Shown one piece after another: positions 52,387 to 63,817 of a DNA stretch of 64,000 nucleotides. The translations under genes and the position numbers were made by a program. How positions within the stretch are numbered: position 1 is the stretch's first letter; each line of letters starts with the position of its first letter. This stretch comes from Burkholderiales bacterium. GTDB taxonomy: Bacteria; Pseudomonadota; Gammaproteobacteria; Burkholderiales; Ga0077523. The stretch spans positions 129-64,128 of the forward strand of contig JAIESW010000024.1 in assembly GCA_019745565.1 (NCBI GenBank), read 5' to 3'. Under the pieces are notes generated by a model. The model was given only the letters and a program-made list of their open reading frames with translations. It did no database searches and was not told where the DNA came from.

Positions 52387-52697
52387 TGTGCGGCCTGTGC
52401 GGCGTGTTCCTGACGGAAACGAGCTGGAGCGACGCCTCGGTCGGCTCGGTCGAGACCGGGGCGCGCACGCGCCGGCATGAACGCCTGCACCGCGTGGCGC
52501 TCGCCAATCGCGTCCTCAAGCCCTTCGGATCCAGGCTGTCGGACTGGAACGGCGTGTCCTATCTGGTGAGCGGTCCGACCGGACAGACGTCCATCGTTCC
52601 GAGCGTCGCGTCGGTATGGCCGGTGGTCGAGCAATTGCGCAAGGTGCGTCTCGATCCGCTCGACGAAGGTCTGATCGAAGCGCTCGAGCGCGACTGA
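52386..52697 (+). CDS. hypothetical 103-aa protein beginning MCGLCG
   Basis: ATG shares one nt with the potA-like stop (TGATG) and ends 8 nt before the COG0523 gene. GC3-rich codon usage throughout. No family recognised. Confidence 0.55.
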   Translation: MCGLCGVFLTETSWSDASVGSVETGARTRRHERLHRVALANRVLKPFGSRLSDWNGVSYLVSGPTGQTSIVPSVASVWPVVEQLRKVRLDPLDEGLIEALERD

Positions 52698-52705
52698 CCG
52701 CGACG

Positions 52706-53731
52706 ATGAGTTCCGCACGAACGCTCACGCCGGTAAACGTCCTCACCGGTTTTCTCGGGAGCGGCAAGACCACGCTGCTGCAACGCCTGCTGCGTTCACC
52801 CCGGCTCGATCGCACGGCCGTGCTGATCAACGAGTTCGGCGAGGTCGGACTGGATCATCTGCTGGTGCAGCGGGTCGACGATGCCGTCGTGCTGCTGGAG
52901 AGCGGTTGCATCTGTTGCACCATCCGTGGCGATCTGACCGGTGCGTTGCGCGGCTTGCTTGACCGGCGCGACCGGGTCGAGATTCCCGCCTTCGATCGCG
53001 TGGTGATCGAAACCACCGGCCTGGCCGATCCCGGACCGATCCTGTACACGCTGCTGAACGAACCGGTGCTGCAACACCATTTCCAGCTGGGCAACGTCAT
53101 CACGACGGTGGACGCTGTGAACGCCGCGCTGCACCTGTCGAAGAATCCCGAAGGCATGAAGCAGGTGGCAGCCGCCGATCACCTGCTGGTCACGAAGACC
53201 GACCTCGCCAGCGACGAGCAGATTGCCGCGGTGCGCGCAGTGCTCGCACAGGTGAATCCTTCGGCGCATGTACGCGACGCCATCGACGAGCCGCTCGATG
53301 TCGACGGCCTGCTCGACGTGCGTCCGCCGAAGTCAGCGCCGGCCTTCGTTCCTGCCGGTGACGCGGGCGCGACCGACACGCTGCACGCATTGCGCAGGCA
53401 CAGCCAGGACATTTCCAGTTTCAGCCTGGTGCTCGACGAGCCGCTGGACTGGACCGCCTTCGGCGTCTGGTTGAGTCTGCTGCTGCATCGGTACGGCGAC
53501 GACGTGTTGCGCGTGAAGGGCATCCTGAGCGTGCAGGGCAGCGCTGCCCCGGTATTCATGAATGCCGTGCAGCACGTGGTGCATCCGCCGCAGCATCTGG
53601 AGACCTGGTCGACCGAAGATCGTCGATCGCGGATCGTGTTCATCACGCGCGGCATCGATCATGGGCGGCTGCGACGATCGCTCGAAGCGTTTTGCCGCCT
53701 GCGCGTGGCGGAGCTGTCGGTCTCGGCCTAG
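52706..53731 (+). CDS. COG0523 (CobW/YjiA/ZigA-type) G3E-family GTPase metallochaperone
   Basis: P-loop GFLGSGKTTLL, metal motif GCICCT, ETTGLADP. 341 aa. Track start trimmed to MSSARTL. Confidence 0.85.
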   Translation: MSSARTLTPVNVLTGFLGSGKTTLLQRLLRSPRLDRTAVLINEFGEVGLDHLLVQRVDDAVVLLESGCICCTIRGDLTGALRGLLDRRDRVEIPAFDRVVIETTGLADPGPILYTLLNEPVLQHHFQLGNVITTVDAVNAALHLSKNPEGMKQVAAADHLLVTKTDLASDEQIAAVRAVLAQVNPSAHVRDAIDEPLDVDGLLDVRPPKSAPAFVPAGDAGATDTLHALRRHSQDISSFSLVLDEPLDWTAFGVWLSLLLHRYGDDVLRVKGILSVQGSAAPVFMNAVQHVVHPPQHLETWSTEDRRSRIVFITRGIDHGRLRRSLEAFCRLRVAELSVSA

Positions 53732-53765
53732 CGCCGTCCTTGGAACCCTGAGGAGATTCTGCACC

Positions 53766-55154
53766 ATGGCATCCGCGGACAGCACCAAGACGTCGGGCAT
53801 CCGTGCGAACCGCTTGCCCGAAGAGGTGTACGCACGCAACTTCGCTGATGCACATCCGGCGCTCACGCCGAACCAGGCGCTGGTGGAGAGCGACCGCTGT
53901 CTGTTCTGCTACGACGCACCGTGCGTACAGGCCTGTCCCACCGGGATCGACATTCCCAGCTTCATCCGCAAGATCGCCACCGGCAACATCAAGGGGTCGG
54001 CCCAGGACATCCTGAGCGAAAACGCGTGCGGCGCGCTGTGCGCGCGGGTCTGTCCGACCGAAGTGCTGTGCGAAGGCAGCTGCGTGCGTAATCTCCAGGA
54101 GCACAAGCCGGTGGCGATCGGTGCCTTGCAGCGCTACGCCACGGACTGGGTGTTCGATCGTGGCGTCCAGGTCTTTCAGCGCGCGGCCGACACCGGTCGT
54201 CGCATCGCTGTCGTCGGTGGCGGGCCGGCGGGGCTCTCCTGTGCGCATCGTCTTGCGACCCTGGGACACTCGGTGACCGTGTTCGAAGCGCACGACAAGC
54301 TCGGCGGCTTGAACGAATACGGCGTGGCCGCCTACAAGGTGGCGGGCGGGATCGCCCAGCGCGAAGTTGACTACCTGCTCGAAGTGGGCGGGATCGAGGT
54401 CCGGTTCGGGCAACGCTTGGGGAAGGAGCTGTCGCTGGCCGCGTTGCGGCGCGACTTCGACGCGGTGTTCCTCGGCATCGGACTTGGCGCGGTCAATGCA
54501 CTGGGCATCGACGAGCCGGCCATCGACGGCGTGTACGACGCCATCGACTACATCGCGGACCTGCGCCAGAGCCAGGCGCTGGCGACGCTGCCGGTCGGCC
54601 GCAGTGTGGTGGTGATCGGCGGCGGCATGACCGCCATCGACATCGCGACGCAGATCCGGCGCCTGGGCGCCGAAGACGTCACCATCGTCTATCGGCGCGG
54701 TCCGGAACAGATGGGTGCGAGCACCAAGGAACAGGATTGGGCTCAAACCAACGGCGTGCGCATCAAGCATTGGGCGCGGCCCACCGGTTTGCTGTCGGAT
54801 GGTGGCCATCTCGCCGGCGTAGCGTTCGAGTACACCCGACTGGACGACCAGCAACGCCTCGCCGGCACTGGCGAGCGCTTCGAGTTGCCCGCGGACATGC
54901 TGTTCAAGGCCATCGGCCAGGTGCTGGTGCGTGACTCGCTCGATGGTCAGGTCGGGTTGCTCGACACTGCGTCGGGACGCATCGCCGTGGATGCGGAGCG
55001 CAGGACCTCGCTGCCCGGGGTGTGGGCCGGCGGTGACTGTGTTGCAGGGGGCCGCGATCTCACCGTCGAAGCGGTGCAGGACGGCAAGCTCGCCGCGCTG
55101 TCGATCGACCGGGCCTTGCGTCCGGCGCAGGCTTCAGGAGTTCGCCATGGCTGA
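53766..55154 (+). CDS. preT: NAD-dependent dihydropyrimidine dehydrogenase subunit PreT (GltD-like)
   Basis: 462 aa. N-terminal Fe-S Cys motifs (CLFCYDAPCVQACP; CARVCP) and FAD/NAD folds VVGGGPAGLSCA and VIGGGMTAID. Confidence 0.85.
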   Translation: MASADSTKTSGIRANRLPEEVYARNFADAHPALTPNQALVESDRCLFCYDAPCVQACPTGIDIPSFIRKIATGNIKGSAQDILSENACGALCARVCPTEVLCEGSCVRNLQEHKPVAIGALQRYATDWVFDRGVQVFQRAADTGRRIAVVGGGPAGLSCAHRLATLGHSVTVFEAHDKLGGLNEYGVAAYKVAGGIAQREVDYLLEVGGIEVRFGQRLGKELSLAALRRDFDAVFLGIGLGAVNALGIDEPAIDGVYDAIDYIADLRQSQALATLPVGRSVVVIGGGMTAIDIATQIRRLGAEDVTIVYRRGPEQMGASTKEQDWAQTNGVRIKHWARPTGLLSDGGHLAGVAFEYTRLDDQQRLAGTGERFELPADMLFKAIGQVLVRDSLDGQVGLLDTASGRIAVDAERRTSLPGVWAGGDCVAGGRDLTVEAVQDGKLAALSIDRALRPAQASGVRHG

Positions 55155-56469
55155 TCTCAGCAGTTCCTTCGTCGGCATCCGCTCGCCCAATCCGTTCTGG
55201 CTCGCCTCCGCGCCGCCGACCGACAAGGCATACAACGTCAACCGTGCTTTCGAAGCCGGCTGGGGTGGCGTGGTGTGGAAGACGTTGGGCGAGGACCCGC
55301 CCATCGTCAACGTGAGCGGTCCGCGCTACGGCGCTTTGCTCGGGACCGCGCGCAACCTGATCGGCTTCAACAACATCGAACTGATCACCGATCGGCTGCT
55401 GGACGTGAACCTGCGCGAGATCCGGCAAGTGAAGCGCGACTGGCCCGACCGCGCGCTCGCGGTGTCGCTGATGGTTCCTTGCGAAGAGCGCGCGTGGAAA
55501 ACCATCCTGCCGATGGTGGAAGACACCGGTGCCGACGGGATCGAACTCAACTTCGGCTGTCCGCACGGCATGTCGGAGCGGGGCATGGGTTCCGCGGTGG
55601 GTCAGGTGCCGGAGTACGTGGAGATGGTGGTGCGCTGGTGCAAGGAAAACTCGCGCCTGCCCGTCATCGTCAAGCTCACACCGAACGTGACCAATATCCT
55701 GGCGCCCGCGCGTGCCGCGCAACGCGGTGGCGCCGACGCTGTCTCGCTCATCAACACGGTGAGCGCGATCATGAGCGTCGATCTGGACGGCATGACGCCC
55801 AGTCCGAGCGTGGGAGGCCGCGGTGCGCATGGCGGCTACTGCGGTCCGGCGGTGAAGCCCATCGCCTTGCGCATGCTGGGCGAGATCGCGCGCGATCCGG
55901 AATGCCGCGGTGTGCCCTTGTCCGGGATCGGCGGCATCGCCACGTGGCGCGACGCCGCCGAGTTCATGGCGTTGGGCGCATCCAACGTGCAGGTATGCAC
56001 TGCCGCCATGGTGTACGGCTTCAAGGTGGTGGAAGACATGATCGACGGTCTCGTGAACTGGATGGATGCCAAGGGTTATCGCTCCGTCCCGGAGTTCGTC
56101 GGCAAGGCTGTGCCCAACTTCGTGGACTGGGAGCAGCTCGATCTCAACTACACGGTCAAGGCGCGCATCGACCAGAGCCTGTGCATCCGGTGCGGCCGCT
56201 GCCACATCGCGTGCGAGGATACGTCGCACCAGGCGATCACGCGCGAGCGCGACGGCAAGCGGCATTTCGAAGTCATCGATGCCGAATGCGTGGGCTGCAA
56301 CCTGTGCGTGAACGTATGTCCGGTAGATCAGTGCATCACGCTCGAGTCGCTGCCGGTGGGTACGCCGGATCCGCGGACCGGTCAGCCGGTGCGCAGCTAT
56401 GCGAACTGGACCTCGCACCCGAACAATCCGGCGCAGCGCGCGCCTGCCGCGACGGCGCCGGTCAAGTGA
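55147..56469 (+). CDS. preA: NAD-dependent dihydropyrimidine dehydrogenase subunit PreA (DHOD-like plus 2x[4Fe-4S])
   Basis: 440 aa. ELNFGCPHGM and C-terminal ferredoxin motifs CIRCGRCHIAC and CVGCNLCVNVCP. 8-nt overlap with preT. Confidence 0.88.
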   Translation: MADLSSSFVGIRSPNPFWLASAPPTDKAYNVNRAFEAGWGGVVWKTLGEDPPIVNVSGPRYGALLGTARNLIGFNNIELITDRLLDVNLREIRQVKRDWPDRALAVSLMVPCEERAWKTILPMVEDTGADGIELNFGCPHGMSERGMGSAVGQVPEYVEMVVRWCKENSRLPVIVKLTPNVTNILAPARAAQRGGADAVSLINTVSAIMSVDLDGMTPSPSVGGRGAHGGYCGPAVKPIALRMLGEIARDPECRGVPLSGIGGIATWRDAAEFMALGASNVQVCTAAMVYGFKVVEDMIDGLVNWMDAKGYRSVPEFVGKAVPNFVDWEQLDLNYTVKARIDQSLCIRCGRCHIACEDTSHQAITRERDGKRHFEVIDAECVGCNLCVNVCPVDQCITLESLPVGTPDPRTGQPVRSYANWTSHPNNPAQRAPAATAPVK

Positions 56470-56526
56470 ACCCGTGGAACCTGGTGATGCGCGCGCCAGG
56501 CGCGTGACGAGTCGGAGGAAATCGAG

Positions 56527-57765
56527 ATGTCGCTCACCATCAATGCGGAACGGCTGTGGGACTCCCTCATGGAGCTTGCCAAGATCGGCGCCACGGACAA
56601 GGGCGGAGTACGCCGCCTGGCGTTGACCGATCTCGACCGTCAGGGGCGCGACCTGGTGATCCGCTGGTGCAAGGAGGCCGGTTGCACCGTCAAGGTGGAC
56701 GCCGTGGGCAATATCTTCGCGCGGCGTGCCGGGCAGGACGACAGCCTCCCGCCGATCATCACCGGGAGCCATATCGACACCCAGCCCTCCGGCGGCAAGT
56801 TCGATGGCAACTACGGCGTTCTTTCGGGCCTCGAGGTGATCCGCACGCTGAACGACAAGGGCGTCAAGACGCGGGCGCCGATAGAGGTGGCGGTGTGGAC
56901 CAACGAGGAGGGCTCGCGCTTCACGCCGGTGATGATGGGGTCCGGTGTCTTCGTCGGTGCGTTCCCGCTCGACATGGTGCTGCAGCGTCCTGACATCGAC
57001 GGCATCACGGTGGGCACCGCGCTGAACCAGATCGGTTATGCGGGCACCGAGCCGGTGGGTGGTCGTCCGGTCGGGGCCTATTTCGAAGCGCACATCGAAC
57101 AGGGGCCGATCCTCGAGGACGAGGACAAGGTGGTGGGGGTCGTGGTGGGTGCGCTGGGCTTGCGGTGGTACGACGTGGTGATCACCGGCCAGGATGCTCA
57201 TGCGGGTCCGACACCCATGCGCTTGCGCAAGGATGCGCTGCTGGTGGCGTCTCGCATCGTGCACGAGGTCAACGCCATCGCCTATCGCTTCCAGCCGAAC
57301 GGCCGCGGAACGGTGGGCTTCATGCAGGTGAAACCCAACTCGCGCAACGTCATTCCGGGCGAAGTGCGATTCTCGGTCGATCTGCGGCACGCGGAGGACG
57401 CCGAGCTCGAACGCATGGAACAGGAGATGCGCGCAGCCTGCGATCGCCTGGCCCAGGCGGAGCATTGCACGGCGAACGTCGAGCGCGTGGCCAACTACCC
57501 GGCATGCAAGTTCGACGAGAGCTGCGTGGCGCAGGTGCGCAAGGGCGCGCAGGATGCGGGATTCAGCCACATGGATATAGTCAGCGGTGCCGGGCACGAC
57601 GCGATCTACATGGCTCGCGTCTGCCCGACGAGCATGATCTTCGTGCCCTGCGAAGGCGGCATCAGCCACAACGAGATCGAGAACGCCAAGGCGGAACATC
57701 TGGCGGCCGGGTGCAACGTACTGCTGCACGCCATGGTCGAGCGCGCAGGCATCGCCCATCGATGA
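56527..57765 (+). CDS. M20-family Zn amidohydrolase: N-carbamoyl-amino acid / beta-ureidopropionase / allantoate amidohydrolase type
   Basis: 412 aa. GSHIDTQPSGGKFDG and WTNEEGSRF motifs of the AmaB/AllC group. Confidence 0.82.
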   Translation: MSLTINAERLWDSLMELAKIGATDKGGVRRLALTDLDRQGRDLVIRWCKEAGCTVKVDAVGNIFARRAGQDDSLPPIITGSHIDTQPSGGKFDGNYGVLSGLEVIRTLNDKGVKTRAPIEVAVWTNEEGSRFTPVMMGSGVFVGAFPLDMVLQRPDIDGITVGTALNQIGYAGTEPVGGRPVGAYFEAHIEQGPILEDEDKVVGVVVGALGLRWYDVVITGQDAHAGPTPMRLRKDALLVASRIVHEVNAIAYRFQPNGRGTVGFMQVKPNSRNVIPGEVRFSVDLRHAEDAELERMEQEMRAACDRLAQAEHCTANVERVANYPACKFDESCVAQVRKGAQDAGFSHMDIVSGAGHDAIYMARVCPTSMIFVPCEGGISHNEIENAKAEHLAAGCNVLLHAMVERAGIAHR

Positions 57766-58748
57766 AACCGAAGGTCGTCCTGCTCGCCACCGGCGGCACC
57801 ATCGCCTCGCGCTACGACCCGGCGCTGGGCCGAACCGTCGCCTCGCAACGCGCCGAGGATCTGCTGAAGATGCTGCCGCAGGCCGGCGAGGTCGTGGACC
57901 TCGAAGTCATCGATCATGCGACGGTGGCGAGCTTCGACATGACGGTGCAGTTCGCCTTCGGTCTGACACGGCGCATCAATGAACTGGCCGCGCGCGCCGA
58001 CGTCGCCGGGATCGTCGTGACCCACGGCACCGATACCATGGAGGAAACGAGCTATCTCGCGGATCTCCTGCTCGCATCCGACAAGCCCGTGGTGTTCACG
58101 GGCGCGCAGCGTGCCCACGACGATCCGCAGGCCGACGGACCGCTCAATCTGCTGAACGCGTTGCGCGTGGCGGCGGCGTCTGCGGCGCGCGGCCTCGGCG
58201 CGGTGGTGTGCTTCAACGGCACCATCCACGCGGCGCGCGACGTGACCAAGGCGCATACCAGCGCGGTGGAGACGTTCCAGTCGCCGGATCACGGACCGCT
58301 GGGTGAAGTGGATGGCGCGAGTGTCGTGGTGCACCGCCGGCCGGGCCTGCGCCGCAGCTTCACGGTCGACCGCCTCGAGGAGAGGGTCACGCTGTTCCGG
58401 CTGGCTCTCGGCGTCGATCTCGAAGACCTGCGCGCGATCGTCGCCCGCAAACCCGCGGGCATCGTGATCGAAGCCTTCGGACGCGGCAACGGGCCCAGTG
58501 CGCTGACCCCGATCGTGCGCCAGGCGACCGAGGACGACATCGTCGTATGCGTGGCGTCGCGCTGCGGTACCGGGCGCGTGAAACCCGTTTACGGCGGGGG
58601 CGGCGGCGGGCGCGACCTGGAGGATGCCGGCGCCCGCTTCGCCGGCGATTTGCGCGGACCGAAGGCGCGGCTGGCGCTGATGGTTCTGCTGTCGTCGGCC
58701 GACACCCGCACGCGCGTCAACGAAGTGCTCGCCCAACTCGCTCCCTGA
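57762..58748 (+). CDS. L-asparaginase family protein
   Basis: 328 aa. LATGGTIAS nucleophile motif and HGTDTMEET. ATGA overlap with the carbamoylase stop. Confidence 0.82.
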   Translation: MKPKVVLLATGGTIASRYDPALGRTVASQRAEDLLKMLPQAGEVVDLEVIDHATVASFDMTVQFAFGLTRRINELAARADVAGIVVTHGTDTMEETSYLADLLLASDKPVVFTGAQRAHDDPQADGPLNLLNALRVAAASAARGLGAVVCFNGTIHAARDVTKAHTSAVETFQSPDHGPLGEVDGASVVVHRRPGLRRSFTVDRLEERVTLFRLALGVDLEDLRAIVARKPAGIVIEAFGRGNGPSALTPIVRQATEDDIVVCVASRCGTGRVKPVYGGGGGGRDLEDAGARFAGDLRGPKARLALMVLLSSADTRTRVNEVLAQLAP

Positions 58749-58786
58749 CGGGAGCCTCTGCCTTTCGCTCGAACGAGGAGACCCAA

Positions 58787-60199
58787 ATGGCTGCAACCCT
58801 GATCAGGAACGGCAGGATCGTCACCGCGGTGGACGACTATACGGCGGACATTCTCGTGAAGGACGGCAAGGTCGAAACCATCGGTCGCAACGTCCAGGTT
58901 GGCGGCGATGTCGAGGTGCACGACGCAGCGGGACTGCTGGTGCTGCCCGGCGGCGTGGACGTGCACACCCACCTCGACTGGGAGTTCGGACCGACGTACA
59001 CCGTGGACACCTTCGGCACCGGCACCAAGTCCGCGGCGTTCGGCGGAACGACGACGCTCATCGATTTCTGCAATCAGACCGCCGGCTTCAGTCCGCTGAA
59101 GGGCCTCGAGAACTGGCACAAGCGCCGCGAGAGTGCGTGCGTGGACGTCGGCGCGCACATGATCATGCTGGACGTGAACGATCAGAGCCTGATCGACATG
59201 AAGACGCTCATCGCCAAGGAGGGGGTGACGAGCTTCAAGCTGTTCATGGCCTATCCGGGTGTGCTGATGGTGGACGATGGTGCCTTGTTCAAGGCCATGC
59301 GCGTGGCCGGCGGCAACGGCGCCATGACCTGCATCCACGCCGAGAACGGGCCGGTGATCCAGGTACTGGTGCAGGAGGCGGTCGCGCAAGGTCTGAAGGC
59401 ACCGAAGTACCACGCGAGCACGCGGCCGTCCATTCTCGAAGGCGAGGCGACGCACCGCGCGATCCGGCTCGCGGAACTCGCCGGAGCGCCGCTCTACATC
59501 GTACATCTGTCCGCGGGCGAAGCGCTGCATGCGGTGACCGAGGCGCGCGACCGCGGCATTCCGGTGCATGCCGAGACCTGCCCGCACTACCTGTTCCTCA
59601 CTGCGGAGGAGTACGAGCGGCCGGGTTTCGAAGGCGCCAAGTACGTCATGACCCCGCCGCTGCGCGACCACCACCACCAGCACCAGCTCTGGCGCGGCCT
59701 GAAGACCGACGACCTGCAGGTGGTCTCCACGGACCATTGCCCGTTCTGCTTCAACGAACAGCCCTACGGCATCAAGTACTCCAAGCAACAGGGCATCGAC
59801 AGCTTCAGCAAGATTCCGAACGGCGCGCCCGGCGTGGAGACGCGGCTGCCGCTGATCTTCGACGGCGCGGTCACCAAGAACGGCATGTCGATCAACCGCT
59901 TCGTCGAGATCACGTCGACCGCACCGGCCAAGCTCTTCGGGCTGTTCCCGCGCAAGGGCACCATCGCGGTCGGTTCCGACGGCGACATCGTGCTGTTCGA
60001 TCCGAAGGAACAATGGACCATCCGTGCCGCAGAGCAGCACAGCAGGATCGACTACACGCTGTTCGAAGGTCGCCCGGTCACCGGACGCGTGAAGAAGGTG
60101 TTCCTGCGCGGTCAATGCATCGTGGATGGGGCGAACTGGCGCGGGCGCGAGGGCATGGGCCAGTACCTGCGGCGGGCCGAGTCCGGCGCGATACGCTGA
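58787..60199 (+). CDS. dihydropyrimidinase / D-hydantoinase
   Basis: 470 aa. GGVDVHTHLD metal motif and SFKLFMAY (carboxylated Lys context). Track start trimmed. Confidence 0.88.
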   Translation: MAATLIRNGRIVTAVDDYTADILVKDGKVETIGRNVQVGGDVEVHDAAGLLVLPGGVDVHTHLDWEFGPTYTVDTFGTGTKSAAFGGTTTLIDFCNQTAGFSPLKGLENWHKRRESACVDVGAHMIMLDVNDQSLIDMKTLIAKEGVTSFKLFMAYPGVLMVDDGALFKAMRVAGGNGAMTCIHAENGPVIQVLVQEAVAQGLKAPKYHASTRPSILEGEATHRAIRLAELAGAPLYIVHLSAGEALHAVTEARDRGIPVHAETCPHYLFLTAEEYERPGFEGAKYVMTPPLRDHHHQHQLWRGLKTDDLQVVSTDHCPFCFNEQPYGIKYSKQQGIDSFSKIPNGAPGVETRLPLIFDGAVTKNGMSINRFVEITSTAPAKLFGLFPRKGTIAVGSDGDIVLFDPKEQWTIRAAEQHSRIDYTLFEGRPVTGRVKKVFLRGQCIVDGANWRGREGMGQYLRRAESGAIR

Positions 60200-60241: not shown

Positions 60242-60592
60242 CTATTTCTTCTTCCAGCGGCTCGCGCACTGCACCGGCGAGTTGCGGATGAGCATCTTCG
60301 GCTCGCGCGCATCGGCCCAATGGATGACGTCGTGGGATGTGCCCGAGGTGCTGTTCTTCACCGTCGGCTCCTGGGCGGCCTGCACGTCGCCCTCGATTAC
60401 GTCGTCGACCTTCGGCACCGGCGGTGTCTTCACCGAGAACAGCCCGTAGGCGTAGTTGGGGTCGCCGTCGGGCAGCTTAAGGACGAAATAGCCGCAAGTC
60501 GGGTCAGCCCAGCTCACCACGCCCTCGGCCGCGAATCCCGCGGCGGGCAGCAGACAAGCCAATGCACCAGCACACAGCAACCGCTTCTTCAT
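60242..60592 (-). CDS. small secreted protein of unknown function
   Basis: 116 aa. Signal peptide MKKRLLCAGALACLLPAAGFA. Lys-rich C-terminus. Confidence 0.5.
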   Translation of the reverse strand: MKKRLLCAGALACLLPAAGFAAEGVVSWADPTCGYFVLKLPDGDPNYAYGLFSVKTPPVPKVDDVIEGDVQAAQEPTVKNSTSGTSHDVIHWADAREPKMLIRNSPVQCASRWKKK

Positions 60593-60975
60593 TCGCGTTC
60601 TCCTCCCTCCGGACCACCGCGCCGCAACATGGACGCGCCGTGAATCCTACCTTGACTTATGTAGGTGACATCGAAAGAATTCGGCGCAGCAGGCGTGAAC
60701 AAAGTGCACCCGACGTCAGATCGGCAAGCACGGGCAGGCATCGAGGGGAGGTTCAGTACTTTTTCCTGGACCGGTCGGCGATCCGCCGTGCATGCGGCTG
60801 CCGCCGCGTCGGTTCGTCGCCGCTACGACGGCGGGCGGACCCCTTCTTGACCTGAGCCCTAGGCGCAGTGCGATGACGCGCGCGGGCACGCGTGCCCCGG
60901 GGGACCCGCAGGCACCGACCCGCTCGACCAGGCCGAAAGTCCGTGGTTCGAGTCAACTCAGGAGGGGTCGTCAAC

Positions 60976-62664
60976 ATGCATATCACGTTGAAAACGATGG
61001 TGGTCGCACTCGGCTTTGCAGGGATGGCGAGTGCGGCGTTCGCAGGACCGGTGAGCGAACAGATGCTCGCTCAGGATCCGAGCGATTCGTGGCTGCACAC
61101 CAACGGCAACTGGGCGGGCCACCGCTACAGCGTGCTGTCGCAACTCAACAACCGCAACGCCAAGGACCTCAAGGTCGCCTGGACGACTTCGGTCGGCGCG
61201 AAGACCGATTCGCAGGCCACACCGCTGTATCACGACGGGCTCATCTACTTCCCGCAGGACAACAAGGTGTTCGCGATCGACGCCGACAACGGCAAGATCG
61301 CGTGGAAGTACGAGCACAAACTGCCGGACGACTGGGGCGGCTACAACGTGCCGTTCTTCACCGGCAAGCACCGCGGTGTCGCCATTCTCGGCGAGAACGT
61401 GTACTTCCTGTCGAACGACAACAAGCTGCATGCCCTGAACTACAAGACCGGCAAGCCCAAGTTCGTCGCCGACTACCAGAAGGACGGCATCGTCTATCCG
61501 AAGGACTTCGCCAAGGCCGGCGACGCGAACGGGTACATCAGCACGGTGGGTCCGATGGCAGTGCCCGGCGCCATCATCCTCCCGATGAACGGCACCGACA
61601 CCGGCGGCCTCGAAGGCTTCGTGCTCGGCGTGAGCCCCGAAGACGGGAAGTTGCTGTGGAAGGCCAACATGATCCCGCGGCCTGATGAGCCGGGCGGTGA
61701 CACGTGGCCTGCAGGCAGCCAGAAGTACGGTGGCGCCGGTCCGTGGATCGCGGGTTCCTATGATCCGGATCTCAAGATGTACTTCACCGGAACGGCCAAC
61801 GCCTACGAGTGGAACCCGAAGAACCGGGGCGGCGGCGAGATGGACAATGTCGGTGCGGCGAGCATCGTCGCGGTCAGCACGGACAGCGGCAAGGTCAACT
61901 GGCGCTACGTCGGCGTGCCGGGCGATCCCTGGGACTTCGACATCCCGCAGACGCCGATGGTGATCACCATCGACGGCAAGAAGACGATCGTGCAGCCGAA
62001 CAAGACCGGTTACATCCATCACCTGGATGCCAAGACCGGCAAGTACCTCAAGGCCGATCTTTTCATCGACAAGATCAACTGGATCAAGGGGTACGACAAG
62101 AACGGCCGTCCCATCGACATGATTCCGCTGCCGAAGGAAGGCGGCGATCCGGTGGAGATCGCTCCTGCGTTGCTCGGCGGGGTGAACATGTACCCCAACG
62201 CCTACAACCCGAACACGGGCAACCTGTATCTGGCCGCCACCGAGTCGTCGATGAAGTACGGCTTCGAGGACATCAAGCTGATCAGCAACGTCCGTCACTT
62301 CGGCGCGTATCAGGAGTTCAACTTCGGCGACGAAGTGGACAAGGCCGTCAACGTGAAGACCGGCAAGGAAGTGTGGCGCGACACGCAGGTCGGCAAGCCC
62401 GGCTATGCGGGCGGCATGCTGACCACCGCGGGCAATCTCGTGGTCTACACGACGCAGGGTGGCCGCTTCACCGTGGCGGACGCGCGTACGGGCGAGAAGC
62501 TCTATGAGCTGAACACGGGCATCGCCGCCAAGTCGGGCCCGATCACGTTCATGCACAAGGGCAAGCAGCTCATCGTGCAGCCTCTGGGCGGAACGCCCGG
62601 CTTCGGTCGCGACGAAGCGAACGGGGTCGAGTTCGGCCACGCGATCATCGCGTTCACGCGATAG
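60976..62664 (+). CDS. PQQ-dependent dehydrogenase, methanol/ethanol (quinoprotein ADH) family, divergent
   Basis: ATG 7 nt after AGGAGG. Signal peptide MHITLKTMVVALGFAGMASAAFA. 8-bladed propeller-type repeats align by eye with ExaA/XoxF (…KLPDD…HRGVAILG…, …DPWDFDIPQ…, …GGMLTTAGNLVVYT…). Confidence 0.8.
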   Translation: MHITLKTMVVALGFAGMASAAFAGPVSEQMLAQDPSDSWLHTNGNWAGHRYSVLSQLNNRNAKDLKVAWTTSVGAKTDSQATPLYHDGLIYFPQDNKVFAIDADNGKIAWKYEHKLPDDWGGYNVPFFTGKHRGVAILGENVYFLSNDNKLHALNYKTGKPKFVADYQKDGIVYPKDFAKAGDANGYISTVGPMAVPGAIILPMNGTDTGGLEGFVLGVSPEDGKLLWKANMIPRPDEPGGDTWPAGSQKYGGAGPWIAGSYDPDLKMYFTGTANAYEWNPKNRGGGEMDNVGAASIVAVSTDSGKVNWRYVGVPGDPWDFDIPQTPMVITIDGKKTIVQPNKTGYIHHLDAKTGKYLKADLFIDKINWIKGYDKNGRPIDMIPLPKEGGDPVEIAPALLGGVNMYPNAYNPNTGNLYLAATESSMKYGFEDIKLISNVRHFGAYQEFNFGDEVDKAVNVKTGKEVWRDTQVGKPGYAGGMLTTAGNLVVYTTQGGRFTVADARTGEKLYELNTGIAAKSGPITFMHKGKQLIVQPLGGTPGFGRDEANGVEFGHAIIAFTR

Positions 62665-62688: not shown

Positions 62689-62720
62689 GGGCGCGCGCGC
62701 GAGCGCGCGCCTCTTTTTTT
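62689..62720 (+). terminator. rho-independent terminator after the PQQ dehydrogenase gene
   Basis: GC hairpin GGGCGCGCGCGC-GAGC-GCGCGCGCC followed by a run of 7 T. Confidence 0.75.
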
Positions 62721-62764
62721 CGCGGGACCGTGCGAGGTCCCGCCGGCTACAGGGAGTCTGCAGC

Positions 62765-63178
62765 ATGCAAGGCATTTCGAAGAAGCGGTGGGGTCGCTGG
62801 GTGGTCGCGTTGTCGTTCGGTTTCGCGGCCGGCGCGGCGCTCGCGGACGACGCGATTCCCGAGTCCAATCCGTATTCCGGTGACGAGAAGGCGATGCGCG
62901 AGGGCAAGTCGTGGTATCGCGGCGTGTGCGCCGCCTGCCACGGCGGTCGTGCGGACGGGGCCGGCGAGCGCGGCAACGGCGCCGACCTGCGCAAGTTCGA
63001 GCTCGGCTTCAAGGGCTTCGTTCACGTCGTGCTCGAGGGGCGCCAGCAGCCCGGACGCACCATGGCGATGCCGGCCTGGAAGGGCGTCCTCAAGAACGAC
63101 GACATCTACAAGATCGGCGCCTACCTTGAAACCATGGCGATCGAGGGTGCCAACTGGAAGGAGGGCAACAGGCACTGA
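62765..63178 (+). CDS. monohaem class I c-type cytochrome
   Basis: 137 aa. Signal peptide, haem motif CAACH, distal Met context TMAMPAW. Confidence 0.82.
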   Translation: MQGISKKRWGRWVVALSFGFAAGAALADDAIPESNPYSGDEKAMREGKSWYRGVCAACHGGRADGAGERGNGADLRKFELGFKGFVHVVLEGRQQPGRTMAMPAWKGVLKNDDIYKIGAYLETMAIEGANWKEGNRH

Positions 63179-63397
63179 GGTGCGCGGGACGATGCGCGTC
63201 CCGCGGCCGGCGGCTTTGCCTGCGGGAACTCCCGCGGGCATTGCTGATCTTCATCGTATGGATCGACTTGGGCGGCGGGAGCAAGCTGCCCTCGCGGTCG
63301 GGTGAGCGCCTGGCCTGCGAATTGCTGTAGAGAAGCTCAAGAAGCCGCCGAAGGGTCCGAAACCCGAGGCAGGGGGGAGTCGAATGGAGATGTCGCC

Positions 63398-63817
63398 ATG
63401 GACGCTGCCCCGCTTTCCTCGTTGCTCACCGAGCTCTTCACCGCGATCCAGCTCGTTTCCGGTTACGGAATCCCGGAGCGCATGCCGGAGGTGCATTTCG
63501 TGCCCCAGCAGATCATCCAGGAGAAGTTCTGCAACGGGCCGTGTCGCATCCGGGCGGTCTATCAACCGGAGATGGGTGTCTACATCGACGAACGGCTCGA
63601 CGTGGTGCACAACACCTTCGAGCGGTCGATCCTGGTGCACGAACTGGTGCACCACCTCCAGGCCACGTCGGGCATGTTCGGCGCCAGCGTGAGCGAATGC
63701 GAGCGCGCCACGCACGACGAGCGCGAGGCCTACGAGATCCAGAACCGCTACCTCAGCAGCATGAAGGACGAGCACCGCATGCCGCTGCCGCGGTTCGCGC
63801 GGGCCTGCAGCGGCTGA
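63398..63817 (+). CDS. small HExxH-motif protein of unknown function
   Basis: About 139 aa from MDAAPLSS. HELVHH putative zinc motif. Start uncertain (track 63302 is a GTG). Confidence 0.45.
   Translation: MDAAPLSSLLTELFTAIQLVSGYGIPERMPEVHFVPQQIIQEKFCNGPCRIRAVYQPEMGVYIDERLDVVHNTFERSILVHELVHHLQATSGMFGASVSECERATHDEREAYEIQNRYLSSMKDEHRMPLPRFARACSG

Follow-up and report, generated by a model that had tools for sequence, protein, structure and literature searches.

A cysteine-free PQQ-family dehydrogenase with a putative three-aspartate metal site, encoded beside a class-I cytochrome c in a Burkholderiales bacterium

We investigated a gene in a 64,000-nucleotide (nt) stretch of the Burkholderiales bacterium contig JAIESW010000024.1 (the window), which an earlier note made from the DNA letters had described as encoding a periplasmic pyrroloquinoline quinone (PQQ) dehydrogenase without the usual adjacent cysteine pair. 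The gene (60976..62664, + strand) encodes a PQQ-family eight-bladed β-propeller dehydrogenase of 562 amino acids (aa) with no cysteine. Directly downstream on the same strand, starting 100 nt past the dehydrogenase gene, is a gene for a 137-aa class-I monoheme cytochrome c (62765..63178, + strand), the presumed electron acceptor, and both proteins carry signal peptides. The ATG at 60976 was favored over an upstream GTG at 60892 because a Shine-Dalgarno sequence, AGGAGG (60960..60965, + strand), was read from the sequence 10 nt before it and because the N-termini of homologs agree with this start. Residues 1-23 (60976..61044, + strand) form a predicted Sec signal peptide, MHITLKTMVVALGFAGMASAAFA followed by GP, with Lys6, a hydrophobic core and an A-F-A/G junction at which cleavage would follow AFA; homologs have similar N-termini. 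The G+C content at third codon positions is 0.87, typical of genes in the window, which has 65% G+C overall.

The dehydrogenase matched the PQQ family of Pfam (PF01011) with an E value of 5e-54. Its best solved relative was the lanthanide-dependent PedH of P. putida (6zcv), with 31-32% identity and an E value of 4.5e-69 for an alignment that covers residues 15-539 (HMMER/phmmer). An AlphaFold2 (AF2) model, computed from an alignment of 28 members of the clade described below (alignment A1), had a mean predicted local distance difference test score (pLDDT) of 81.7 and a predicted template modeling (TM) score of 0.85. The top 30 Foldseek matches to this model were all PQQ alcohol, methanol or sugar dehydrogenases, with PedH first at a TM score of 0.79, and the eight-bladed propeller fold extended over the full length of the protein, with TM scores of 0.71-0.80 to all solved members. 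Together with the signal peptide, these matches support a periplasmic PQQ-family dehydrogenase, as the earlier note had proposed. Two other types of propeller protein were considered and ruled out. A BamB-like non-enzyme does not fit the TM scores to BamB, which were 0.42-0.48 of query length as against 0.71-0.80 for the dehydrogenases. A quinohemoprotein (type II/III alcohol dehydrogenase, ADH) does not fit a protein of 562 aa with no Cys, no CxxCH motif and no fused heme domain.

The dehydrogenase belongs to a tight clade. A word-indexed search yielded 4796 relatives, and each of the best 120 was at least 65% identical to it. When 1.84 billion 50%-cluster representatives were searched exhaustively, the dehydrogenase grouped with just two that were full-length (51% and 49% identity; 576 and 523 bits). 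The full-length match ranked after these lay outside the clade at 250 bits and 34-36% identity, and identity to anything outside the clade did not exceed 36%. In a neighbor-joining (NJ) tree of 133 sequences and 496 columns with 100 bootstraps, the clade had 100% support and contained no reference enzyme, and support for sister relationships was 50% or less. The clade fell outside both the XoxF and the ExaF/PedH groups among the references sampled, which comprised one XoxF (type II) and one PedH and did not include by name XoxF1, XoxF3-5 or Keltjens types 4-9. A pattern scan across 185,579 species genomes turned up 98 relatives, and the best 80 of these, on which our locus counts rest, were all in metagenome-assembled genomes (MAGs). 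They came from Betaproteobacteria (Burkholderiales and others), Rokuibacteriota, Entotheonella, marine Alphaproteobacteria, Rhodospirillaceae, SAR324 and Steroidobacteraceae, with one MAG each from Pelagibacterales, Acidobacteria and Latescibacterota. The closest relative, at 98% identity, was in another Burkholderiales MAG (JAIEQG010000084), and a homolog with 90% identity (L002) is on the complete MAG chromosome OZ257154.1. Relatives carry generic database names such as "alcohol dehydrogenase (cytochrome c)" and "PQQ-binding-like beta-propeller repeat protein".

To compare active-site residues, we aligned the dehydrogenase and eight clade members by L-INS-i with PDB-verified sequences of MxaF (1h4i), XoxF (4mae) and ExaA (1flg) and with the sequences of PedH and ADH-IIB taken from HMMER output. 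PedH binds its metal through Glu199, Asn281, Asp323 and Asp325 (PMC11845868), and the residues aligned with these four were Asp208, Asn275, Asp320 and Asp322. Asn275 (61798..61800, + strand) is also the equivalent of MxaF Asn261. The motif W319-D320-F321-D322 (61930..61941, + strand) aligned without gaps with PedH W322-D323-F324-D325, XoxF WDYD, MxaF WDYA, ExaA WDFS and ADH-IIB WDFT. Asp320 thus corresponds to the catalytic Asp303 of MxaF and Asp323 of PedH, and Asp322 to XoxF Asp301 and PedH Asp325, at a position occupied by Ala in MxaF, Ser in ExaA and Thr in ADH-IIB. This bore out the earlier reading of a second Asp two residues past the catalytic one, as in XoxF and PedH, where calcium enzymes have Ala or Ser. 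The second Asp is required for lanthanide function in XoxF1 and ExaF, and calcium enzymes have Ala, Ser or Thr in its place (Good et al.).

The earlier note had overlooked a further substitution. Asp208 (61597..61599, + strand), which is followed by a clade-specific one-residue insertion, stands in place of the metal-binding Glu (PedH Glu199, MxaF Glu177). Because this Glu is replaced by an invariant Asp, the predicted metal site is a non-canonical set of three Asp and one Asn (3D-1N), not the canonical lanthanide set made up of two Asp plus a single Glu and a single Asn (2D-1E-1N). The site is strongly conserved: Asp208, Asp320, Asp322 and Lys343 were each invariant in alignment A1, the D-x-D motif was present in 120/120 of the best homologs, and Asp occupied the Glu-equivalent position in at least 118 of these 120. 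Gln80, Arg133, Thr190, Trp257 (MxaF Trp243), Asn275 and Asn404 (MxaF Asn394) were also invariant in the clade, as were Asp320, Asp322 and Lys343. Lys343 (62002..62004, + strand) stands in place of the PQQ-contacting Arg (MxaF Arg331), with NKTG aligned to DRNG as had been noted. A Lys here is ordinary, being present in ADH-IIB (1kv9) and in 43 of the 119 nearest full-length 50%-cluster representatives outside the clade, the set that we used to gauge how common each feature is.

The lid loop over the predicted cofactor site is LPDDWGGYNVPFFTGKHRG (residues 116-134; 61321..61377, + strand). In both the HMMER alignment to PedH and the L-INS-i alignment it corresponds to LPDDIR----PCCDV(I/V)NRG, with Phe127 and Phe128 placed on the two Cys (MxaF Cys103/Cys104, ExaA Cys105/106), and it is four residues longer than the loop of ExaA and PedH. 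Arg133 aligned with the conserved PQQ-carboxylate Arg (MxaF Arg109). The absence of the adjacent Cys pair and its replacement by a longer loop, both proposed from the sequence earlier, were thus confirmed, and since the whole protein has no Cys, no Cys pair can be hidden elsewhere in the loop. Phe127 and Arg133 were invariant in alignment A1, and the clade has its own invariant lid sequence, WGGYNVPF(F/I/V)TGKHRG. Amongst the best 120 homologs, the positions equivalent to the Cys pair were FF in 76, FI in 32, FV in 11 and FL in one; none had adjacent Cys anywhere and 66 had no Cys at all.

The cytochrome c encoded downstream has the heme motif C55-A-A-C58-H59 and a Met102 in the sequence MPAW. 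It matched Cytochrome_CBB3 of Pfam (E value 1.2e-10), its best NCBIfam match was c550_PedF (TIGR04494) at 54.5 bits, below the cut-off of 122, and its PDB matches were CcoP domains and cytochromes c6. A homolog of this gene was directly downstream of the dehydrogenase gene and on the same strand in 64 of the 77 loci with at least 500 nt of downstream sequence, across several phyla. This linkage is the strongest functional evidence that we obtained, and it suggests that the propeller carries out redox chemistry and has a cytochrome acceptor of its own, on a conventional electron route. The partnership is presumably like that of PedE and PedH with PedF and of methanol dehydrogenase (MDH) with cytochrome cL. 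Of the different electron-exit path proposed earlier, one part therefore stood, as the Cys-Cys relay is missing, while the acceptor appears to be a conventional PedF-like class-I cytochrome c. Between the two genes, a consensus scan and pattern match detected a GC-rich hairpin followed by a T-run (62689..62722, + strand), with a 10-bp stem containing nine GC pairs and then CTTTTTTT. This element may be a partial terminator that acts as a read-through attenuator, or an mRNA-stabilizing hairpin. A megablast search of plasmids with the two-gene module gave no match.

Taken together, the fold, the conserved residues and the gene linkage suggest a periplasmic, soluble eight-bladed quinoprotein dehydrogenase that forms a two-gene module with its cytochrome c. 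In the mechanism that we propose, PQQ would be held over Trp257, beneath a lid with Phe127 and Phe128 in place of the Cys-Cys ring. One metal ion would be bound by Asp208, Asn275, Asp320 and Asp322 together with PQQ, and Asp320 would act as the catalytic base in the oxidation of an alcohol, aldehyde or sugar-type substrate. The co-encoded cytochrome c would then receive the two electrons of PQQH2 directly, one after the other, and hand them on to a terminal oxidase. A disulfide relay would not be involved, as in the Pseudogluconobacter PQQ-ADH 4CVB, which reportedly also lacks the Cys pair. We place the probability of this reading, mechanism included, at roughly 60%. With strong confidence we predict the more general part of it, that this is an active PQQ dehydrogenase feeding its cytochrome c.

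Several observations weigh against this reading. The dehydrogenase scored 327.7 bits against TIGR03075, the methanol/ethanol dehydrogenase family, below the cut-off of 480.05, and 300.2 bits (E value 2.7e-89) against TIGR04528, the acido-empty-quinoprotein group A, below the cut-off of 650. The coordinating Glu is absent from the site, and two Trp residues that neighbor PQQ in MDH, W476 and the C-terminal Trp of a WGG-type segment, were not kept in the L-INS-i alignment. The lid loop was modeled at a pLDDT of only about 66. The D-x-D motif was present in 100 of the 119 outside representatives and is therefore a weak discriminator. Sites without a coordinating Glu (2D-1N) have been computed to prefer Ca2+ (second 2026 preprint). 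Gene neighborhoods in the 80 loci gave no clue to the substrate, and baits for PqqC and PqqE, which we validated against the PDB, had no tblastn match in the window or within 10 kb in the 80 loci, a search that covered the window and these loci and not the rest of each genome. This agrees with the earlier statement, for pqqC and pqqE, that the window holds no PQQ-biosynthesis gene. The dehydrogenase departs from the methanol/ethanol family on two defining points, the vicinal Cys-Cys ring over PQQ and the curated score, and from a canonical lanthanide site on one, the Glu. The family's catalytic Asp320, Asn275 ligand, stacking Trp257 and lid Arg133 are all present and invariant, and despite these departures the gene product would be expected to behave like a type I quinoprotein that is partnered by a cytochrome.

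The canonical lanthanide site is 2D-1E-1N, and both 3D-1N and 3D-1E have been put forward on computational grounds as candidate non-canonical lanthanide sites (second 2026 preprint). Three carboxylates and an Asn may favor a trivalent lanthanide over Ca2+; since a shorter Asp stands where the canonical site has a bidentate Glu, we give this about even odds. The same enzyme and cytochrome module could instead use Ca2+ or another divalent ion, if Asp208 is too short to substitute for a bidentate Glu and the site acts as 2D-1N with 5-7 coordinating oxygens. We consider this possible, and the less probable course. It would be consistent with the invariance of the Glu-to-Asp change in the clade, with the computed Ca2+ preference of 2D-1N sites and the report that Ca-preferring proteins arise within lanthanide-type clades (second 2026 preprint), and with our finding that no lanthanide-uptake or lanmodulin-type gene was recognized among the conserved neighbors. 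Against it, Asp322 is invariant and all solved calcium enzymes have Ala, Ser or Thr at that position; Asp208 is itself invariant, and the one-residue insertion that follows it could reposition it; and 3D-1N sites reached the lanthanide-reference tier in the computational comparison (second 2026 preprint). The choice between lanthanide and Ca2+ thus hinges on whether Asp208 reaches the metal. Metal preference is mispredicted by sequence motifs alone (second 2026 preprint), and of the rare-earth dependence suggested in the earlier note, the homology of the second Asp held while D-x-D as a sole diagnostic did not.

Two further explanations concern the kind of protein encoded. The TIGR04528 match raises the question of whether the protein is an "empty" propeller, lacking a cofactor or catalytic activity, that is related to the acido-empty-quinoproteins and has a binding or structural role, and the lack of linked pqq genes and the NCBI naming of relatives only as PQQ-binding-like repeat proteins would fit such a role. 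However, the score is far under the family cut-off, the catalytic Asp, metal ligands and PQQ-stacking Trp are invariant across phyla, and a cytochrome c of its own is conserved as the adjoining gene; it is also normal for pqq genes to be unlinked, and PQQ can be scavenged. We therefore regard an empty propeller as very improbable. A divergent XoxF-type lanthanide methanol dehydrogenase is more improbable still. Such an enzyme would also have a D-x-D motif and an adjoining cytochrome c, but identity to XoxF structures is about 25%, the score against XoxF is 160 bits compared with 237 against PedH, there is no Cys pair, none of the reference groups sampled for the NJ tree includes the clade, and the cytochrome resembles PedF and c6 proteins and not cytochrome cL (25 bits against MoxG, with a cut-off of 148). 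Phylogeny, percent identity and cytochrome type together ruled out XoxF identity.

The combination of a lid without Cys-Cys and a D-x-D motif is not unusual, and such proteins have already been published. Adjacent Cys were absent from the lid of 65 of the 119 outside representatives, 58 of which had D-x-D, and Asp occupied the Glu site in 36/119. Thaumarchaeal quinoproteins without Cys-Cys and with DYD or DXD have been described (Aylward and Santoro 2020), and 15 eight-bladed clades have been predicted to be of lanthanide type, with the argument that most PQQ enzymes are lanthanide dependent (Voutsinos et al., 2026 preprint). The earlier note had expected a little-explored clade: it has no characterized member, as expected, and its combination of features is not the unusual one that had been supposed.

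Comparison with individual systems placed the dehydrogenase closest to PedH (6ZCV/6ZCW), the best match in both sequence and structure. Both are soluble periplasmic eight-bladed propellers with WDFD containing both Asp, an Asn ligand, a stacking Trp and an LPDD...RG lid frame, and the partner in each case is a small class-I cytochrome c, PedF for PedH. The dehydrogenase differs from PedH in having Phe-Phe for Cys-Cys, four additional lid residues, Asp for Glu and Lys for Arg. The L-INS-i alignment also showed two differences in length: the clade has roughly 10-15 extra residues of its own within about residues 166-185, and the dehydrogenase lacks roughly 16 residues after blade 3. The NJ tree does not place it within the PedH/ExaA group, and its score is below the TIGR03075 cut-off. 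ADH-IIB (1KV9), the third-best PDB sequence match (E value 7.6e-56), shares the Lys at the Arg331-equivalent position (PKNG compared with NKTG), but has Cys-Cys, WDFT and a fused C-terminal heme domain, whereas the cytochrome here is a separate gene. Type I PQQ dehydrogenases without Cys-Cys have the same fold at TM 0.71-0.80, but are only 22-25% identical: these are 4CVB, the deoxynivalenol (DON) dehydrogenases 7WMD, 22VI and 9M2C, and the sorbose dehydrogenase 4MH1. Phmmer aligned only the N-terminal half for 4CVB, 7WMD, 9M2C and 4MH1, and nearly the full length for 22VI. The Pseudogluconobacter enzyme 4CVB, said to have been described by Rozeboom and colleagues in 2015, reportedly lacks the vicinal disulfide, has been proposed to transfer electrons directly to cytochrome c, and reportedly takes three of its four calcium ligands from non-canonical positions; in this last respect 4CVB would differ from our clade, which retains the canonical ligand positions. 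The marine, heterotrophic Thaumarchaeota quinoproteins and predicted PQQ-8beta-Ln clades in soil MAGs share the same feature combination and are likewise from uncultured organisms. However, the dehydrogenase is of another clade, at most 36% identical to these, and it is tightly linked to a cytochrome c partner that the thaumarchaeal proteins lack.

We clustered the gene neighborhoods of the 80 loci within ±7 kb and found only three recurrent neighbors of relevance: the cytochrome c, a small secreted protein and an HExxH protein. When the remaining recurrent neighbors were scanned with Pfam, they gave only tetratricopeptide repeat (TPR) proteins, MotA/ExbB-like proteins or nothing, and the neighborhoods held no clue to PQQ synthesis or lanthanide uptake. 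The gene for the small secreted protein (60242..60592, - strand) is divergent from the dehydrogenase gene and encodes 116 aa with two invariant Cys, the invariant motifs DPTCGYF and IHWA and a Lys/Arg-rich tail. It had only 66 homologs, all unnamed, with no Pfam, NCBIfam or PDB fold match, and its AF2 model was a small β-barrel plus helices. It adjoined the dehydrogenase gene in 18 of the 80 loci, as it did in another two independent contigs (L081 and L082), which have the same divergent layout with the cytochrome c, and may be an accessory component of the module. The HExxH protein, with the motif HELVHH (63302..63817, + strand), matched Pfam DUF6647 below the cut-off (E value 0.002) and showed similarly weak, sub-threshold likeness to putative metallopeptidase families. 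It was near the dehydrogenase, downstream or upstream, in 7/80 loci, and its membership of the module is uncertain. Directly upstream, 52616-60199 (+ strand) holds a reductive pyrimidine/hydantoin-type catabolic cluster, with PreT/PreA-like dihydropyrimidine dehydrogenase subunits recognized by eye and an M20 amidohydrolase, an L-asparaginase and a dihydropyrimidinase-type amidohydrolase recognized by Pfam. A CobW-family GTPase and an ABC transporter precede this cluster, which, with the transporter, is probably unrelated to the quinoprotein.

Variants of the locus were seen in other genomes. Some Burkholderiales and Entotheonella MAGs have tandem dehydrogenase paralogs (L008, 181-1848 and 2119-3795; L038, L044, L048), and in the latter three the second copy follows about 870 nt after the first, past the cytochrome c gene. 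Entotheonella genomes have at least three dehydrogenase copies, some without an adjoining cytochrome (L040-L043). In marine Alphaproteobacteria MAGs (L054-L058, L061-L065, L067; for example L055, 11702-12739) the downstream cytochrome c carries a fused C-terminal extension of about 220 aa that had no Pfam match. Further genes common to these loci encode a TPR protein, a MotA/ExbB-like protein and a number of membrane or secreted proteins without names. The 49%-identical clade member, on a 4.2-Mb contig (P0122), has lost three of these residues, namely the lid Arg (KHLG), the Trp before the catalytic Asp (QSDLDT) and the Lys (TRQSGD), and may be a paralog that is inactive or re-purposed. A partial member of its cluster is labeled Tectomicrobia. 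In six MAG loci (L004, L066, L072, L074, L077, L080) the dehydrogenase was recovered by tblastn in two to four pieces in different frames, which would be either frameshift assembly errors or pseudogenes.

Many uncharacterized clades of this kind exist, and nothing here contradicts current understanding. The protein is worth expressing, as a reasonable biochemical target that would not much surprise a specialist, because both of its features are common among environmental relatives. The fullest form of our proposal is a lanthanide-dependent 3D-1N quinoprotein with a Phe-Phe lid that reduces its cytochrome c directly and, in Burkholderiales, works with the small secreted protein as an accessory or chaperone. 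We hold this combination only tentatively and think it rather doubtful as a whole. If true, it would describe a three-part periplasmic oxidation module in abundant uncultured soil, sponge-symbiont and marine bacteria, in which the small secreted protein of the Burkholderiales would be a new accessory subunit or a metal or cofactor chaperone. If the enzyme is active, it would show that a type I quinoprotein with a canonically placed site can pass electrons to a soluble cytochrome c without the Cys-Cys ring. The dehydrogenase also offers a clean test of lanthanide binding by a 3D-1N site, which bears on the claim that most PQQ enzymes are rare-earth dependent, and given the uncultured hosts of the clade, its substrate would inform on periplasmic carbon oxidation in soils and oceans.

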